Shown here one piece after another: positions 13,234 to 25,569 of a stretch of 64,000 nucleotides of DNA (positions within the stretch are counted from its first letter, which is position 1; each line of letters opens with the position of its first letter). The stretch lies in the IMG/VR virus record IMGVR_UViG_2706795240_000001, positions 13,780 to 77,779 of that record, one strand, 5' to 3'. The stretch comes from a virus (Duplodnaviria; Caudoviricetes). A program made the position numbers and the translations under genes. Below the pieces are notes generated by a model, which saw nothing but the letters and a program-made list of their open reading frames with translations, did no database searches and was not told where the DNA came from.

Positions 13234-14973
13234 ATGCCTTACCCGCCGAATCGCCTTATTGAAGAGGCATTTCTCGCTCCAACCGTCGAAGTTATTCGAC
13301 GGGTCGAGATTTACGAGTACGACGGCGAGACGCCCTGGAAACCTGAATTGTGGCCTTACATCCTGGTCGGAGGAAATGTTAATGTTTCCTCCGACCAGGA
13401 TTCTCGGCGTTCTGCCGATTTTGAATTCTACAATGAGGGCGGGGAACTCACACCAGAGGCCGGTAAATTCTGGTACGATAAAATCATTAAAGCCTATTAC
13501 GGTATCGTGACTCACAAGGAAAACGAGGGTCGCGAACCTAGCATTATTATTATCGAAGAAGAGTCGGCACTTAATCAGGGCGTCATGCTTAAAAAGCTGC
13601 TGTCCGAGGCTGGCGTTCATTTCGTAGAATACAACCCATTGATTGATACGCTGGCGGAAGTACAGGATTACGATATTCTCGTGTCCATCAGCGGAGACTA
13701 CACGCGTAAATTGCCGCTGTTGACCGCTGCATACACTGCCGGTAAGTCGGTCCTGACGTTTGGCCTTAACTCAACCGCTGCCCAACTACCCCTGTTGATC
13801 ACCAGCACCTCAGCGGTGCGATCTGGGGACGATGCGCGGCACTTCGAGAACGCGGGGGCCGCCGACCCGGCGTCGGCAGGCTGGGACTCGTGGAATGTGG
13901 CCACGCCGGGGAGCTATCGGCCCATCGTGGCCACGCCGGGGGTCACGGTCGCGCTGGAGCAGCGTAATTCGTTCGGACTTGGGGCGGTACTTCGCGAGGG
14001 CGCAGAAACCGGCGTATGGATTCATACGCAAATGGCCAAGTTCGATAATTCAGTGTTCGCCGATCCTTCTGATCGCGAAGGCTTTATCGAGTATCTTGCA
14101 GCCATTGTTAATCGGGCAGACACGTACGATATTGAGAAGAACTGGGAAGCACAGGTTGGCGAATTCATCCCCGAGGCAATCTCGGACGGTGGAGACGTAA
14201 TCACGAATACAATCACGGTTACGGCCAGGGATTATGCAAAGCGTTGCCAGAGCAGCAAGCTGGCTAAGGCAACTCTTTTTCCCGCCGATCAGAGCATCAT
14301 TGAGATCATCAAGGCTCTGGCGAATAACTCGAACGTATTCAAGACCAGGTTGCCAGAGACGCTGAATATCAAGCTCGGCAAGGACACGACCTATGAACGG
14401 GACCAGGATAGATGGACCGTAATGAAGGAAATTGCCGTTGCGAACAATATGGATTTGTGGTTTGACAACGAGGGCTATCTCCGTCTTACGCCACAGAATG
14501 ATCCGTTGTTGACTCCGGCTACACTTCAATTAACAACCGGTGATCGAGGAAACTTGATTTCTCGTGGCAGGAAAACTTCTGATGCCGGACTGTTCAATCA
14601 TGTGACAGTAGTTGGCGAAAGCTCCGACAAGAGTGTTCCTCTGGTTTTTGGTGAGGCGGCGAATAATGATCCGCTGTCGCCAAGTTCAATTCAGAGAATT
14701 GGTTGGCGAACAAAGAACATTTCTTCTCCGCTTATTACTAGCGATCAGCAGGCGCAGGAGATTGCGAATACTATGCTATCGGTCTCGTCGCTAGAGGAAT
14801 TTGAACTCGACTTTTCGAGCATTCTTTTCCCGTGGGTAGAGGCTGGCGAAATTCTAGAAATGAACGAAGACATTGCAGGCTGGGCACCGGCGAGGTATTT
14901 GATTACATCGTTGACCCTGCCTTTTGATCTTTCTCCGATGACGGGAACAGGAAAGCGGGTGACCAAGCTATGA
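13234..14973 (+). CDS. Minor tail protein (hub/baseplate-like)
   Basis: 579 aa in the tail module. The C-terminal half has the DRWTVMKEIA...WFDNEG and NHVTVVGE pattern of siphophage hub proteins. Confidence 0.75.
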   Translation: MPYPPNRLIEEAFLAPTVEVIRRVEIYEYDGETPWKPELWPYILVGGNVNVSSDQDSRRSADFEFYNEGGELTPEAGKFWYDKIIKAYYGIVTHKENEGREPSIIIIEEESALNQGVMLKKLLSEAGVHFVEYNPLIDTLAEVQDYDILVSISGDYTRKLPLLTAAYTAGKSVLTFGLNSTAAQLPLLITSTSAVRSGDDARHFENAGAADPASAGWDSWNVATPGSYRPIVATPGVTVALEQRNSFGLGAVLREGAETGVWIHTQMAKFDNSVFADPSDREGFIEYLAAIVNRADTYDIEKNWEAQVGEFIPEAISDGGDVITNTITVTARDYAKRCQSSKLAKATLFPADQSIIEIIKALANNSNVFKTRLPETLNIKLGKDTTYERDQDRWTVMKEIAVANNMDLWFDNEGYLRLTPQNDPLLTPATLQLTTGDRGNLISRGRKTSDAGLFNHVTVVGESSDKSVPLVFGEAANNDPLSPSSIQRIGWRTKNISSPLITSDQQAQEIANTMLSVSSLEEFELDFSSILFPWVEAGEILEMNEDIAGWAPARYLITSLTLPFDLSPMTGTGKRVTKL

Positions 14974-17715: not shown

Positions 17716-19437
17716 ATGACAGCTCCGTGGTACTCCAGAGGCCCGAAGGGCGACAAAGGAGACAAGGGCGATACCGGAACCGGCGTCCAGGGTCCGCCCG
17801 GTCCTGCAAACGTGCTCACTGCTGGCCCGGTAACAACGCTTGCTCCCGGCGAGGATGCAGCTATTGATCTGGTTACTACTAGTCCCGGTAACCAGCGACT
17901 TGACGCATCTATTCCACGCGGGGCAAAGGGTGACAAGGGTGATCAGGGAAATGTCGGTCCGGCTAGCGCGCTCTCGTTGGGCACGACTAATACCGGCGCT
18001 CCTGGAACAAATGCCATTGTTGAATTGAGTGGCAGTGCTCCGTCTCAGGTTATCTCATTCACCATTCCACGAGGCAGCAAGGGTGATCAGGGAAATCAGG
18101 GTGATATAGGTCCGGAGGGGCCGCGAGGCTACGGCTATTTTGCTAATGCAGGTGTGCCAACTGTTACCGAGCCAAGCGGACCGCCTGATGACGACCTTGT
18201 CTGGTATCTGGACACCATCACTGGTGAATTTTGGATTTGGGTAGAAACCACTCCTGGAACAAAAGCGTGGGTTCATCAGCCAGCTCGCGGAAGCCTAAAG
18301 GGCGCAAAGGGTGATCAGGGTCTCCCCGGCGGGAAGGGGGATAAGGGTGACCAGGGCGATCCTGGACCGGCGAATTCGCTTGCAATTGGAACGGTCACTG
18401 GACTTGGAACCGGGGCAACGCCTACCGCGAGCATTACCGGTGCCGCGCCGTCCCAGACCCTTAATTTGGGACTGCCTGCTGGCCCAAAGGGCGACAAGGG
18501 CGATAAGGGCGATCCTGGAGACGACGGGGAAGTGTCGGAGGCAATGCTTAACACGGCGGTCAATAATGCTGTGGCGGCATTGGTTGACGGCTCCCCCGCC
18601 GCGCTGGACACGCTAAATGAATTGGCAGCGGCTTTGGGCGATGATCCAAATTTCGCAACCACCATGACGAACGCTCTTGCGGAAAAGGTCGGGAATACAG
18701 ACAGCCGCTTGGCCGATAGCCGGACCCCTACCGACGGCTCGGTTACTCAGGCAAAGTTGGCTCCAAATGGCGGATTTTTCAACAAGCTAAATTTGAGTGA
18801 TCTTACTGCACCTGGTTACACATTTGGCAAGGGAAATTGGATCGTTGTCGATGACAGTGATCCAAATCCCGCAAATCACTTCATGATGTACATTGTGTAT
18901 GGAGCAAACCAGGGTGAGTCGCCTGGAGACGCTTCTGCGCGTGGGATTATGACTCCGGTAATTGTAAACGTAGGCTCTGCGCTTTCGTTTGCCAATGGCA
19001 CCATTGATGTCTTTGACAGTGGTATTACCTCTGCCAAGATCAACGGCGGTGCGGTAACAGCGGCCAAGATCGCTGGCGGAGTTCTTCCGATGGACATGTC
19101 ATTTATTGTGTTCGGCAAGGATACAACGCGAGCGGCGGGGACCGGCGATAATCCTTTTGGTCACAAGTTCCAGAGAAACGTAACGGTTCAGTCTGTAACG
19201 TTTCGATGCCTAACCGCTGATGCCTCTGGAAATCTGGTAGTCGAAATTTGCAAGAACGGAACAGCAGTAAGCGGAACGAATACCACGCTTTCGGCAGCCA
19301 ATCAGGTTGGCGGGGTTACCACCAGTGGCCTGTCTGCAACCTTTTCTGCTGGAGATATCATCACAATTCAGGTAACCGGCGTTGGCACCACTCCTGGCAA
19401 GGGTCTGGTCGCAGATATCAAGGCGGTTGCTTCATGA
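17716..19437 (+). CDS. Collagen-like tail fibre / minor tail protein
   Basis: Several G-X-Y blocks (GPKGDKGDKGD) and the tail-fibre motif LVDGSPAALDTLNELAAALGDDPNF. Confidence 0.85.
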   Translation: MTAPWYSRGPKGDKGDKGDTGTGVQGPPGPANVLTAGPVTTLAPGEDAAIDLVTTSPGNQRLDASIPRGAKGDKGDQGNVGPASALSLGTTNTGAPGTNAIVELSGSAPSQVISFTIPRGSKGDQGNQGDIGPEGPRGYGYFANAGVPTVTEPSGPPDDDLVWYLDTITGEFWIWVETTPGTKAWVHQPARGSLKGAKGDQGLPGGKGDKGDQGDPGPANSLAIGTVTGLGTGATPTASITGAAPSQTLNLGLPAGPKGDKGDKGDPGDDGEVSEAMLNTAVNNAVAALVDGSPAALDTLNELAAALGDDPNFATTMTNALAEKVGNTDSRLADSRTPTDGSVTQAKLAPNGGFFNKLNLSDLTAPGYTFGKGNWIVVDDSDPNPANHFMMYIVYGANQGESPGDASARGIMTPVIVNVGSALSFANGTIDVFDSGITSAKINGGAVTAAKIAGGVLPMDMSFIVFGKDTTRAAGTGDNPFGHKFQRNVTVQSVTFRCLTADASGNLVVEICKNGTAVSGTNTTLSAANQVGGVTTSGLSATFSAGDIITIQVTGVGTTPGKGLVADIKAVAS

Positions 19438-20101: not shown

Positions 20102-20803
20102 ATGACAAGAACGCTCATTGATTCGGGAGCGCGGATCGAGGCTGCCGGTATCAAGCGCGCTGGTCACGTCGGTTCGTTCGGCTATTTGAGCACGTCCCGA
20201 CCTGGAACATTTTTCAGCGGGAAACCCATTCGCCAGGATTGGGTTAACGACATGAATTCTCTTGGACTCATGATTGTTTCGTGCTGGCAATTCGGAAAGA
20301 ACGCGACTGCCGACTGGCGGCGCGGATTTAATGGTGGAGTAGCAGATGCAAAAGCCGCAGCACGCAAGCACCGTGAGCTTGGTGGGCCGGATGACGCCCC
20401 TATTTATTTCGCTGTTGATGACGATGTTAATCTTAGCGATTACCGCCTTTTCGTACGTCCTTACCTTCAAGGGGTTAACTCGGTTATTGGAGTTAATCGA
20501 ACCGGGGTGTACGGACATGACGAATGCGTGACATGGGCCGCTACTGATCAGCTTTTGGGTAAAACCCGCGACGGCTCGGGAAAGACTTTTGGCTGGCAAA
20601 CGCGCGCATGGTCGGAGGGCGATATCTCCCGATATGCCTGTGTCTATCAGCGAATCGTGGATACCGCATCGACACCGGGGCCGCCGATTGACGGCAACCC
20701 TACTGACGTGAACGACATGCTATGTGACGATATCGGCCAGTGGAATTACGGCGGCGGTAAGTGGAATGACATTCTTACTCAAATGCTCGGAACAAAGGAT
20801 TGA
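20102..20803 (+). CDS. Endolysin glycoside hydrolase subunit (DUF1906 / Rv2525c-like GH25 fold)
   Basis: GYLSTSRPG...GKP, IYFAVDDD, GVNRTGVYG and FGWQTRAWS motifs match the DUF1906 family. Confidence 0.85.
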   Translation: MTRTLIDSGARIEAAGIKRAGHVGSFGYLSTSRPGTFFSGKPIRQDWVNDMNSLGLMIVSCWQFGKNATADWRRGFNGGVADAKAAARKHRELGGPDDAPIYFAVDDDVNLSDYRLFVRPYLQGVNSVIGVNRTGVYGHDECVTWAATDQLLGKTRDGSGKTFGWQTRAWSEGDISRYACVYQRIVDTASTPGPPIDGNPTDVNDMLCDDIGQWNYGGGKWNDILTQMLGTKD

Positions 20804-20806
20804 GCA

Positions 20807-21160
20807 ATGCAGTATAAGCAATTCATTCTTGACGAACTCATGAGCGATGAACTCGCTGAAAAGGTCGAGAATGACGTAATCGATAATCTGCGCGCTAGCT
20901 TGGCGGCGGATGACGACCCGTCTAACGACGACCATGAAATCCTTATTACGCGGGGCGTCGGCGCTGACGCGAGTGGCCGGACCGGAACCTATATCATCGG
21001 CACCGTCGATGCTGAGCCGGAACCGTATCCGGAGGTTTCCCGTGAAGAGTATGAGATTTCCGAGGCAAAGCCAACGAAGTATATGGACAACGCTCCGACA
21101 GATTTCAACATTGATGATGATGGATATCTGACGCACATGCTTGGAAAGGTTCAGGGCTAA
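20807..21160 (+). CDS. Acidic hypothetical protein in the lysis cassette
   Basis: 117 aa, D/E-rich, translationally coupled to the amidase; ends in LTHMLG. Confidence 0.7.
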   Translation: MQYKQFILDELMSDELAEKVENDVIDNLRASLAADDDPSNDDHEILITRGVGADASGRTGTYIIGTVDAEPEPYPEVSREEYEISEAKPTKYMDNAPTDFNIDDDGYLTHMLGKVQG

Positions 21161-21810
21161 TGGCATACGTTAATGGTCCGCAGATGATGCGGGATATTGC
21201 CAACATGTGCCATGAGCTTTTCGGCACTACTATCGTTTACTCGAATGGCTGGGAAACTCGTGGTAATGGTCAGGACTGGGCTTACGGAGGTCCAAAAGGA
21301 TTTATTGATCATCACACCGCTGGTGGTAATAACATTTACCTTGACGGCAATCTCATTACGGGTGTTCCCGGCCTCTCAGGTCCTCTCTGCAACTTTGCAG
21401 GTCTTTATGACGGCGACCTTGCTGTGGTTGCTGCGTACCCCGCAAATCACGCGGGCGCTTCGGGAGGCTGGGATACGGCACCTCTGCCGGTAACCGGAAT
21501 GTTCAACCGAGAAGTTCTTGGTATTGAAATGCAGTACCGAGGCGTAGAGCCTATGAGTCCTGCTCAGTATCAGACGCTTCTCGCGGTGAACTACTGTGCC
21601 GCAAAGGTTCTTAACTGGCCTAGCTTTAACCGGATTAAGAACCACCAGGGCACCAGTATTCAGGGCAAGTTCGATATGGGTTTTGCCCCCGGTAAGACGT
21701 ACGATATCGCAGCGATCCGCCGTGATATCGCAGCAAAGGGCGGTACCGCCGGTACCGACGATAAGCTCTGGAATGACATTCAACTCCAGATGATGGGCAC
21801 GAAAGGCTAA
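21160..21810 (+). CDS. Endolysin N-acetylmuramoyl-L-alanine amidase subunit (Amidase_2)
   Basis: WETRG, HHTAG, GPLCN, ANHAG, GIE and KFD motifs typical of actinophage amidases; no cell-wall-binding domain. Confidence 0.9.
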   Translation: MAYVNGPQMMRDIANMCHELFGTTIVYSNGWETRGNGQDWAYGGPKGFIDHHTAGGNNIYLDGNLITGVPGLSGPLCNFAGLYDGDLAVVAAYPANHAGASGGWDTAPLPVTGMFNREVLGIEMQYRGVEPMSPAQYQTLLAVNYCAAKVLNWPSFNRIKNHQGTSIQGKFDMGFAPGKTYDIAAIRRDIAAKGGTAGTDDKLWNDIQLQMMGTKG

Positions 21811-21813
21811 ACA

Positions 21814-22296
21814 ATGGAAGTTGAGTGGAGAAAGGTTCCATTTGACTTCGACTATTCCGTTTCGTCAGCAGGTGAATTGCGAAATGATTCAACGGGAAGA
21901 ATCCTAAAGCCTAGGAAATGTCGAAGATATAATTCATTTGCTATGCAGAATTCCGGCAGAAGGATGGACATATCTGCACACACGTTGATTGCAATGGTAT
22001 TTATCGGAGAAAGGCCACCAGGGTACGATGTGTGCCATAAAAACGGAATACCATCTGATAATAGGGTAGAAAATCTGTATTACGGAACCAAGAGTCAAAA
22101 TCAACTAGACTCGGTTAGACATGGCACACACAGGGGGTCAAGAAAAACCCATTGTCCCAGAAATCATGAATATGATCGGGTAGACGTAAATGGCGCCAGA
22201 AGGTGCTCGACTTGTCTCAAGATTGCAAATGATAAGTCAAACCTTAAAAAGAAGATGCGAAAACAATCTGAAAGAAGGTCGAAGGAAAATGCCTAG
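21814..22296 (+). mobile_element. Free-standing NUMOD4/HNH homing endonuclease
   Basis: N-terminal EWRKVP..YSVSSAG (NUMOD4-like), HTLIAMVF...CHKNG..DNR.ENL (HNH) and C-terminal KTHCPRNHEY; AT-richer than its neighbours. Confidence 0.85.
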
Positions 22297-22636
22297 CGCA
22301 GCAGATGACGTGAATACCCAGTTCATGGGCGACAAAGATAAGAATGGAAAATGGGGCTGGACCGGGCTTGCGCCGCAGCCAGACAATAACGATGTTCGGT
22401 ATTCGCAGTTTGTCAAGAAGGTTGTGGATCGACAGACTGTTGTCGAGGCTCTGGGAACTCTGGTTTTCGAGGCCACTTACCGCATTAAGGCCGTGACCGA
22501 TGTAGCGGAGGCTAAAAAGCGCGCAGTCGATGCCAAGCGCGGCGAGACCGTTCTAGGTCACGCGGCAGTCGCTTCCGGACTCGCGATCACAAATAACGAA
22601 CTGCTTAAGCAGATTCTCGCGGAGGTGAAGAAGTAA
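22289..22636 (+). CDS. Stand-alone endolysin C-terminal-like domain protein (putative cell-wall-binding or scaffold subunit)
   Basis: ATG 22289 with RBS GAAGGA. DDVNTQFMG...WGW...QTVVEALG resembles the C-terminal domain of actinophage lysins (Q..G...GW...T.VDALA). Confidence 0.6.
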   Translation: MPSAADDVNTQFMGDKDKNGKWGWTGLAPQPDNNDVRYSQFVKKVVDRQTVVEALGTLVFEATYRIKAVTDVAEAKKRAVDAKRGETVLGHAAVASGLAITNNELLKQILAEVKK

Positions 22637-23070
22637 TGACTTACGATCCCGCAGATGATCCGCGAATTCCCGACCTGTCCGATGACGCGGTAGTCGGACC
22701 GAACCTCTTTAACATTCGCACCTGGCGAGATGTTATTGCCATGGTGTACGTCATTGTCCCGCTGGCGTCGGCTTCGCTGGTCGGCTACGGCGTTTTCAGT
22801 GACCAAGAGTCTGCCGTTATTGTCGGTGCGGTTCTTGCCGTGCTCCAGGTGATTCTCCAGTTCACTCGTACCGAGAACGGTGTGCGTCGAGCCTTTTATA
22901 CGGTTCTTCTTGCGGCCAATGCCGTACTGGTGTGGTACCGGGTTGTTGATGAAAACTTCCTCACCACCTGGTTGCCCCTGATTAACGCTCTCCTGATCGG
23001 TGTACCGGCTTCGGTTGCCGTCCAGAATGTTAATACTTCTGGCGACGACCTCCGAACCAGCTCTGCATAA
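22636..23070 (+). CDS. Holin
   Basis: 144 aa with about 4 hydrophobic segments, directly after the lysin genes; WRDVIAMVY start typical of actinophage holins. Confidence 0.75.
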   Translation: MTYDPADDPRIPDLSDDAVVGPNLFNIRTWRDVIAMVYVIVPLASASLVGYGVFSDQESAVIVGAVLAVLQVILQFTRTENGVRRAFYTVLLAANAVLVWYRVVDENFLTTWLPLINALLIGVPASVAVQNVNTSGDDLRTSSA

Positions 23071-24469: not shown

Positions 24470-24814
24470 ATGACAGCACCGTCAGTTTATCAGCCTATTC
24501 GATTGGTAAATATTCCGATAGATAAAGGTGTAGGATTTTACTGGGACTTCAAGGATGACAGCATACCTGGTGACGCGCTAGTTATGATGAGGGTATCGTC
24601 CAGGATGAATTTCAAGGGCGAGAGAACGTATTCCATCTGGACGGCGCACAGAAATCCACTGACTAGATTTTGGGAATTTGATGTACCAGAAGAAGACGTT
24701 CTCGCCGCCGATGTAGTGCAAGGGTCCGTCTACCGGCTGTACCGACAGGACGACCGCACGGATAGCCGGACACGAAAGATAATCCCTCAAGCCGGGAGGC
24801 TGGTGTTTAGATGA
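24470..24814 (+). CDS. Hypothetical beta-rich protein
   Basis: 114-aa ORF, coupled to lysin B. Confidence 0.55.
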   Translation: MTAPSVYQPIRLVNIPIDKGVGFYWDFKDDSIPGDALVMMRVSSRMNFKGERTYSIWTAHRNPLTRFWEFDVPEEDVLAADVVQGSVYRLYRQDDRTDSRTRKIIPQAGRLVFR

Positions 24815-25569
24815 GTAAGCCACTCGTTATTCTGTGCCGAGGAATCGGCGAGACGTATGGTCGCGGAATTCTTTGGAATCTAGCGCAATATCTTCCAGTG
24901 GAAGAATACGATATCATCGAAGCGAATTGGAAGGCCGAATATGGCCCGGTTCCGTCGATCGGTGGCTATTCGTTTGAAAAGTCACTAGAAGATGGTAAAT
25001 CCCTTTTGTTAGACCTATGCCTGACTGAGCACCGAGACAGGGGGATTGTCCTGGTGGGCTACAGCGGCGGCGCTCAGCTCGCAGGCGACGTGCTGGCCGA
25101 CCTGGCGGCTCGCGGCCACTCGAACGTGCTCGGCGGCGCACTGCTGTCTGATCCGAGTATGCCCAAGGGGATGCCGGGAACGGGCGGACGCTACGGAATT
25201 CGCGGTAGTCGGCAGATCAAAGAATCAATCCCGGTTCAGTGGTTTTACGAAATCGAGGACGTGATTGCGGTATGCACACCTGCGCCGGATTCGTTGCTGA
25301 GGGTTTTCGCAGATGCATCGGCAGAATTCTCGCTTGGAGGCCCCCGAGCATGGCAGGGGATAATTCCACGATTGCTGAGCAAAAAGCTACAGGCATACGT
25401 TCTACCGTGGTGGAACTTTCAGAAGTTTTTGAGACAATACAACGTCGCCAAATATGAAGCAGAGGGTTATCTGTTCCGTGGCGATCATACTAGCTATACT
25501 GTTCGTAAGAATTGGAATGGCAAAGCATACTTTGAGGATATGGCAGACTGGATTAAGAGTCTTGCTTAG
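24811..25569 (+). CDS. Lysin B (cutinase-like serine esterase)
   Basis: ILCRGIGE start, nucleophile elbow LVGYSGGA, LLSDP, D..A.C and C-terminal His (GDHTSY). Confidence 0.85.
   Translation: MSKPLVILCRGIGETYGRGILWNLAQYLPVEEYDIIEANWKAEYGPVPSIGGYSFEKSLEDGKSLLLDLCLTEHRDRGIVLVGYSGGAQLAGDVLADLAARGHSNVLGGALLSDPSMPKGMPGTGGRYGIRGSRQIKESIPVQWFYEIEDVIAVCTPAPDSLLRVFADASAEFSLGGPRAWQGIIPRLLSKKLQAYVLPWWNFQKFLRQYNVAKYEAEGYLFRGDHTSYTVRKNWNGKAYFEDMADWIKSLA

Follow-up and report, generated by a model that had tools for sequence, protein, structure and literature searches.

The lysis cassette of a virus of the Caudoviricetes (Duplodnaviria; IMG/VR record IMGVR_UViG_2706795240_000001) encodes a glycosidase, an amidase and a lysin C-terminal domain (CTD) in separate genes, and both enzymes end in a tail of 13 residues that resembles the first helix of the CTD. 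The cassette is contained in the window analyzed here, a stretch of 64,000 nucleotides (nt) that corresponds to positions 13,780 to 77,779 of the record and is part of a phage genome of 77.8 kb. The pattern of the tails in this and related phages suggests that a binding function common to them is under selection, and their sequences would fit a short amphipathic helix selected to match one partner common to all of the tail-bearing proteins of a given genome. In our favored reading the tails are docking peptides for the CTD-bearing protein, such that two catalytic heads would share one CTD, and we give this a probability of roughly 55%.

The tails lie at 20762..20800 in the glycosidase (WNDILTQMLGTKD; TGG at 20762, stop at 20801-20803) and at 21769..21807 in the amidase (WNDIQLQMMGTKG; TGG at 21769, followed directly by the stop), both on the + strand, and the coordinates and sequences given for them in the initial annotation are exact to the base. 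The agreement of the two at 9 of 13 residues and over their first 13 nt (TGGAATGACATTC), which was reported at the same time, is likewise correct; the 13-nt identity consists of four identical codons plus one base and is weak evidence alone. Both tails read W-N-D-I-x-x-Q-M-h-G (where h is hydrophobic and x is any residue) followed by three residues. The likeness is far beyond chance; the 10-residue tail pattern matches 3 of the 961 open reading frames (ORFs) in the 77.8-kb genome, these being the two tails, each three residues from the stop, and one spurious internal site. The motif is absent from lysin B (24811-25569). The glycosidase (20102..20803, + strand; 233 residues) is a stand-alone glycoside hydrolase of the Rv2525c-like/DUF1906 type (Pfam PF08924, E = 8e-36, residues 17-194; phrog_13480, endolysin) in which a 4-residue spacer joins the catalytic domain to the tail, and the amidase (21160..21810, + strand; 216 residues) is a stand-alone N-acetylmuramoyl-L-alanine amidase (Amidase_2, Pfam PF01510) with a variable linker in the same place. 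Pfam detects solely the catalytic domain in each, in agreement with the early impression that neither enzyme has a binding domain of its own.

The free CTD, a protein of 115 residues that would act as the hub of the arrangement, is encoded at 22289..22636 of the + strand, and its stop overlaps the start of the holin gene by 1 nt. It had been likened to the domain normally fused to actinophage lysins, and tblastn bears this out: the protein aligns with the C-terminal end of lysin A proteins of the M23, amidase and glycosidase types. Matches were obtained in 118 records of Gordonia, Rhodococcus, Tsukamurella and Nocardia phages with query coverage of 92-99%, most of them to the C-terminal 100 residues of proteins annotated as "lysin A, protease M23 domain", amidase or glycosidase, and in the closest relatives the domain is free. 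It also matches positions 172-273 of the endolysin family phrog_6985. An exhaustive HMMER search of 1.84 billion representative proteins returned 11 true CTD clusters, six of them free (108-123 residues) and five fused. One free cluster, P0003 (108 residues), has its called start at the M-G that ends Q-F-M-G, leaving it without a first helix; either this start is mis-called, or the helix site must be filled in trans. Neither P0003 nor P0002, a further free cluster, is represented in the phage collection.

An AlphaFold2 model of the CTD, built from a 12-row alignment with moderate confidence (pLDDT 74), consists of a helix at residues 4-13 that is formed by the D-x-x-x-Q-F-M-G segment, a small beta element, a helix at residues 51-64, and a C-terminal helical hairpin. 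The ORF begins MPSAADDVNTQFMGDKD, and its first helix, ADDVNTQFMGDKD (22301..22339, + strand), is the segment imitated by the tails, just as the initial annotation had proposed. Across the CTD family Gln11 is nearly invariant and Gly14 is invariant. Fold searches with the CTD gave nothing usable: Foldseek against the PDB returned no convincing match (best E = 1.6), a wide VIA-align search reached a best Z of 5.4 that is confined to the helical hairpin (residues 70-115), no Pfam family was matched at E-value thresholds of up to 10, a CTD profile searched against PDB sequences found matches only to the amidase part of fused rows, and the ESM Atlas was equally uninformative. Pattern scans of bacterial genomes and JGI metagenomes found no relatives.

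The lysis cassettes examined come from 17 CTD-carrying lineages, and L-numbers (for example L011, L015, L023 and L025) are phage lineage labels. The closest public relatives of the phage are the Gordonia phages Jumbo, Camerico and Gmala1/GordTnk2/GordDuk1, with protein identities of ~60-83%. All stand-alone lysin A enzymes in the sampled lineages end in the tail, which is carried by the glycosidase in eight lineages, by the amidase in twelve and by an M15 peptidase in two, and is therefore found on three unrelated folds (Rv2525c-like glycosidase, Amidase_2 and M15 peptidase). Among glycosidase orthologues it is conserved in Jumbo, Gmala1, Camerico, L025, Perlina, L011 and NC1. Each tail-bearing cassette also holds a CTD, which is either free or fused to another enzyme. 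Six lineages (this phage, Jumbo, Gmala1, Camerico, L023 and L025) have it as a free protein. Elsewhere its fusion partner is M23 (Woes-, Monty-, GTE7-, TIN2- and Demosthenes-like phages), GH19 (Yvonnetastic), a GH25-like domain (L015) or a different amidase (Perlina, L011 and NC1). ReqiDocB7 (L012) and Braxoaddie, in which a single-gene LysA carries the CTD, have no tail-only protein. Outside of CTD-bearing phages, a glycosidase-anchored search recovered glycosidase homologues as the N-terminal part of fused lysins of ~590 residues, where a Pro-rich linker comes after the glycosidase domain and the tail motif is absent. The occurrence of homologous glycosidase domains in fused lysins that lack the motif indicates that the tail is an add-on. 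A tblastn search with the amidase subfamily returned 104 actinophage records and, among the matches listed, all are from CTD-bearing phage groups. Because the co-occurrence of tail and CTD is strict in this sample, which is partly anchored on the CTD, the CTD-bearing protein is the most likely partner of the tails. Related phages had been named at the outset as the place to tell a conserved tag from the non-conserved remnant of a duplicated and truncated gene; the tails are kept in them, always together with the CTD, and are not decaying.

Further signs of selection come from the tails themselves. The tail consensus places Trp at position -6 relative to a central Gln (position 0), hydrophobic residues at -3 (where Asn also occurs), -2, +1 and +2, and a Gly cap at +3, after which three residues lead to the C-terminus; the conserved positions are the Trp, the Gln, two hydrophobics and the Gly. 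The linker that precedes the tail is indel-rich and variable in both length and sequence, and the tail is of fixed length, with the stop exactly three residues after the Gly in 19 of 22 tails. Position -6 is aromatic in 18 of 22 tails (Trp in 16) and is Ala, Gly or Ser in 17/17 CTDs (aromatic in 0/17), while position +2 is hydrophobic in 21 of 22 tails and Arg in 8 of 17 CTDs. Tails are also matched to the CTD helix of their own genome, with a score of 63 compared to -8.7 +/- 20 for shuffled pairings (p of about 0.0003-0.003; p = 0.0004 with 14 lineages and p = 0.003 with 8, all of these values being inflated by phage relatedness). Five genomes have two tails, and in these the true pairing of glycosidase and amidase tails yields 30 identities against a mean of 20.4, which ranks first among the 120 possible pairings. 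Tails that are paralogous within one genome are alike at 5-7 of 11 positions, whereas orthologous tails from different genomes are alike at means of 4.0 and 3.3. The same codon is used at only 13 of 29 identical tail residues, indicating that the likeness is maintained at the protein level and does not stem from recent gene conversion. Recent gene conversion between the two tails is ruled out, as their synonymous sites differ, and for the same reason the shared 13 nt are no evidence for recombination or for a ribosome-hop signal.

These observations bear on the possibility that the tails are an evolutionary scar, that is, functionless leftovers of CTDs that were truncated during lysin duplication or recombination at motif-coding DNA. 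The tails are clearly derived from the first segment of the CTD, actinophage lysin A genes are highly mosaic (PMC3314691), and CaptainKirk2, in which both enzymes carry a full CTD, presumably represents the ancestral state. However, a scar does not account well for a tail length that is fixed beside indel-rich linkers in lineages whose CTDs are just 40-60% identical, for the acquisition of tail-specific residues, for concerted evolution of the protein sequence with diverged synonymous sites, or for recurrence of the pattern in a second CTD type. This reading is disfavored, and we regard it as the least probable of those considered.

Alternatively, the tail could act in cis, either as a stabilizing or auto-inhibiting C-terminal helix of the enzyme or because its codons are kept mainly for the ribosome-binding site and coupling of the next gene. 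The cassette genes are tightly coupled, and Shine-Dalgarno-like sequences are located inside the last three codons of both tails, AAAGGA in the glycosidase (window 20794-20799; a likely site for the next gene) and GAAAGG in the amidase (window 21799-21804; a likely site for the HNH gene), at 8-9 nt before the next start codon. The location of these sequences explains why both tails of this phage end in T-K-D/G. Nevertheless, the conserved Trp, Gln, hydrophobic pair and Gly are all upstream of the Shine-Dalgarno codons, and the final three residues are free to differ from one phage to the next even though their codons carry ribosome-binding sites here. Likewise, presence of the tail on three unrelated folds behind variable linkers speaks against its packing onto one particular catalytic domain, and neither form of the explanation accounts for the likeness to the start of the CTD or for the co-occurrence with it. 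We consider a role in cis or in the mRNA improbable.

A serious rival to docking on the CTD is a third-party receptor. Here, the tails and the first helix of the CTD would be a common address tag, each binding the same third molecule, such as the holin, through its cytoplasmic N-terminus, or a different membrane protein encoded in the cassette, and enzymes and CTD would be recruited or gated independently without forming a complex with each other. An address tag accounts for the resemblance of tails to the CTD helix and for their co-variation within genomes, and the series of genes for soluble proteins always ends with the one that bears the CTD, a holin or membrane-protein gene coming next, its start often overlapping the stop before it. 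In addition, a W-[RN]-D-h-I-A-M stretch that is loosely tail-like is conserved at the N-terminus of the holin. In the holin of this phage (Phage_holin_9, Pfam PF23809, E = 1e-10; phrog_565; 22636..23070, + strand, directly after the CTD gene) it is part of N-I-R-T-W-R-D-V-I-A-M-V-Y at residues ~26-38, ahead of the first membrane helix. The stretch is kept in Jumbo, Gmala1, Camerico, Demosthenes-like phages and NC1, and can be compared with W-N-D-I-x-x-Q-M of the tails. On the other hand, the holin resemblance spans 4-5 residues and may be due to chance, and no sampled genome has tails but lacks a CTD, an arrangement that a self-sufficient tag would permit. Furthermore, the Trp at -6 and the more hydrophobic face are features of the tails and not of the CTD helix, which is better suited to complementary partners than to equivalent ligands. 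On balance we think that an address tag is unlikely, less so than a scar or a role in cis.

Docking on the CTD-bearing protein would work as follows. Lysin A of this phage is split into a separately encoded glycosidase, amidase and free CTD, with each enzyme ending in an amphipathic helix of ~13 residues that is a specialized imitation of CTD helix 1. The tail would bind the CTD-bearing protein, either in the site of helix 1 or against helix 1, and sharing of one CTD would bring both catalytic heads to its site of action. In relatives that have the CTD on a third enzyme (M23, GH19, GH25-like or another amidase), the tails would dock onto that fusion, giving complexes of two enzymes. Three geometries are possible, in which the tail replaces the weaker first helix of the CTD, pairs with it, or joins an oligomeric bundle. 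Homology, co-occurrence, constant tail length, residues peculiar to the tails and concerted evolution of the protein sequence are observed, whereas physical binding, its stoichiometry and the CTD's own ligand are inferred.

Several points weigh against docking, in addition to the effect of relatedness on the permutation test. The enzyme-anchored searches reduce, but do not remove, the bias of a lineage sample partly anchored on the CTD. The CTD already has a first helix of its own, which bears on the docking geometry. The last three tail codons also hold the ribosome-binding site of the next gene, and so part of the constraint may be at the nucleotide level. Cell-wall binding by the CTD is assumed from its position alone, given that no Pfam family covers it and that it lacks both a solved relative and a convincing match in fold; the C1 and C2 domains of mycobacteriophage lysins are likewise labeled "Cell wall binding?" (PMC3314691). 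Finally, the initial annotation envisaged an oligomer of the free domain, and this finds no support in a crude test for heptad periodicity of the last helix, which does not rise above shuffled sequences in this phage (p = 0.79) and is significant in 1 of 17 lineages. Because the test is negative in this phage, we do not claim a CTD oligomer.

A second pair of tail and CTD, the latter of an unrelated sequence type, is present in Cleo (L017 2441-3996), GTE2 (L031 951-2448) and BigChungus (L030 908-2463). In these phages the M15 peptidase ends in I-D-A-Y-x-Q-V-x-x-R-F-G-W-x, immediately followed by the stop, and the CTD of the adjacent glycosidase starts with V-E-D-G-A-x-Q-L-x-G-R-F-G-N-V. Judged by its sequence, this pair shows what would be the same logic as that of the Q-h-h-G tail and its CTD. 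CaptainKirk2 (L016 2300-3915) encodes a homologous M15 peptidase and glycosidase that each have a complete CTD of a third type (..Q-L-x-G .. G-W-x-Q-L-G .. T-x-V-D-A-L). It has no tail-only protein and is, by this comparison, the putative unsplit counterpart of the tail arrangement. More tentatively, and with less confidence than in docking itself, we suggest that actinophages might use a general plug-in code based on helix mimicry, in which tailed enzymes load in trans onto a CTD. The code would comprise at least two orthogonal pairs (Q-h-h-G, and the Q-x-x-x-R-F-G-W of Cleo, GTE2 and BigChungus), enzymes could be swapped as cassettes without re-evolving wall targeting, and the acidic protein described below would be a non-enzymatic competitor that times or limits loading.

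The acidic protein (20807..21160, + strand; 117 residues; phrog_18568) is encoded between the two enzymes, with its stop overlapping the amidase start by 1 nt. The initial annotation counted it as one of four proteins with a single shared motif. This is only partly right: the motif is common to the two enzymes and the start of the CTD, but the tail of the acidic protein (GYLTHMLGKVQG; 21122..21157, + strand) has a signature of its own that is conserved and distinct. In its family the signature is h-x-x-H-[LM]-x-x-K plus 3-4 residues, with His110 and Lys114 invariant in 7 divergent sequences and no conservation of Gln or Gly. The terminal helix is therefore related-looking but distinct from the enzyme tails. 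An AlphaFold2 model has strands at residues 2-8, 45-53 and 59-67, helices at 14-32 and 107-115, and low pLDDT at 68-106, corresponding to a small beta-alpha-beta-beta domain, a disordered acidic stretch of ~40 residues and the terminal helix. Searches for a Pfam family and for a matching fold returned nothing. In Woes-like phages, the protein encoded ahead of the amidase is a homologue of the acidic protein (hhalign 95.6%, E = 1.3e-8), and the gene is conserved directly upstream of the amidase subfamily in at least 12 lineages, both Jumbo-like and Woes-like. It is translationally coupled to the amidase and carries its distinct terminal helix on a long flexible linker, and it may plausibly regulate the proposed assembly, compete within it or serve it as a chaperone. 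Chaperones of lysins bind the lysin and help to export it. One comparison is Gp1 of mycobacteriophage Ms6, a chaperone-like protein encoded just upstream of lysA that binds the N-terminal 60 residues of LysA (PMC6116114). Like Gp1, the acidic protein is small, non-enzymatic, directly upstream of a lysin gene and translationally coupled to it through the 1-nt overlap, but it differs from Gp1 in its flexible acidic linker and in the likeness of its terminal helix to the enzyme tails.

One known multi-subunit endolysin is PlyC of streptococcal phage C1, which is encoded by two genes and assembled from a catalytic subunit, PlyCA, and an octamer of PlyCB. As in PlyC, the lysin described here would be made from separately encoded catalytic and non-catalytic (binding) proteins; the enzymes have no further domain, the CTD is a separate ORF, and in both systems an unrelated gene is located between the lysin genes. 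However, PlyCA docks on the PlyCB ring by means of a folded helical domain, whereas the connector proposed here is a 13-residue C-terminal peptide that imitates helix 1 of its partner. Moreover, several different enzymes carry this connector, the partner may itself be an enzyme-CTD fusion, the two systems are unrelated in sequence and fold, and the assembly in this phage is putative. A second group includes Lys170, CTP1L/CD27L, LysIME-EF1 and the phi2638A isoforms, which are multimeric endolysins with two products from a single gene (PMC7098653, PMC12203907; Proenca et al. 2015 via PMC6116114). The proposed assembly is like those in that a free copy of a binding domain would associate with an enzyme-bearing chain, as it does in those hetero-oligomers. 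There, the free domain arises from an internal start in the same gene and pairs with another cell-wall-binding domain (CBD), while here the genes are separate, the enzymes have no CBD, and a short tail is what is shared. In this phage the CTD gene starts 479 nt past the amidase stop, in another reading frame and with the HNH gene in between.

Split lysin A genes of Gordonia phages have been recorded (PMC5559632, PMC9671378), and their consequences have been called unknown (PMC9671378). The cassette described here is one of these Gordonia-type split lysins, the catalytic domains of which are joined in one LysA in mycobacteriophages. Neither of the two reports mentions a shared terminal peptide or a free CTD, and our full-text literature search found no description of either in these phages. 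If the tails do dock, this would explain how the split lysin A of Gordonia, Rhodococcus, Nocardia and Tsukamurella phages delivers several enzymes with one targeting domain, and would constitute a third way to build multi-subunit endolysins, beside the folded docking domain of PlyC and CBD oligomers produced from an internal start. A 13-residue tag and a 115-residue acceptor would also make a compact natural connector, with which enzymes might be combined against mycolic-acid-containing bacteria.

The amidase and CTD genes of this phage are separated by a gene for an HNH homing endonuclease (21814..22296, + strand; NUMOD4 and HNH_3 by Pfam). In Camerico, L023 and L025 nothing occupies this slot, and in Jumbo and Gmala1 it is filled by unrelated ORFs of 78 and 88 residues. 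Insertion of the HNH gene as the cause of the split is ruled out, because the same split between amidase and CTD exists without it; the variation among relatives indicates that the split predates and is independent of the HNH gene, which arrived later. Read-through or frameshifting that would join an enzyme to the CTD is ruled out as well, since the reading frames differ and up to 480 nt and another gene lie between. In TIN2 (L021 2581-3444) a 287-residue "hypothetical protein" without the tail motif is encoded between the tail-bearing amidase and the M23-CTD gene, showing that the slot before the CTD gene accepts insertions.

In public records the free CTD is labeled "peptidase", "lysin A, peptidase domain" or "hypothetical protein", although it contains no catalytic domain, and these labels in the relatives can now be corrected. 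It corresponds to gp32 of Jumbo (L001 6871-7242), gp26 of Gmala1 (L002 5007-5375) and gp35 of Camerico (L003 4947-5369). The annotated Camerico start, a GTG that creates a 40-nt overlap with the amidase gene, is probably too far upstream; an ATG located 6 nt past the amidase stop yields an N-terminus like that of the orthologues.

The lysis block as a whole is tightly packed on the + strand, downstream of the tail genes of the virion. The PF08924 glycosidase, PF01510 amidase and PF23809 holin are contained in one + strand block, the same split layout is annotated in Jumbo, Gmala1 and Camerico, and the holin is followed by membrane proteins and then by lysin B. Just upstream of the block, at 17716-19437, is a minor-tail-type protein of 573 residues with several collagen-like G-D-K-G-D/G-P-x-G runs.

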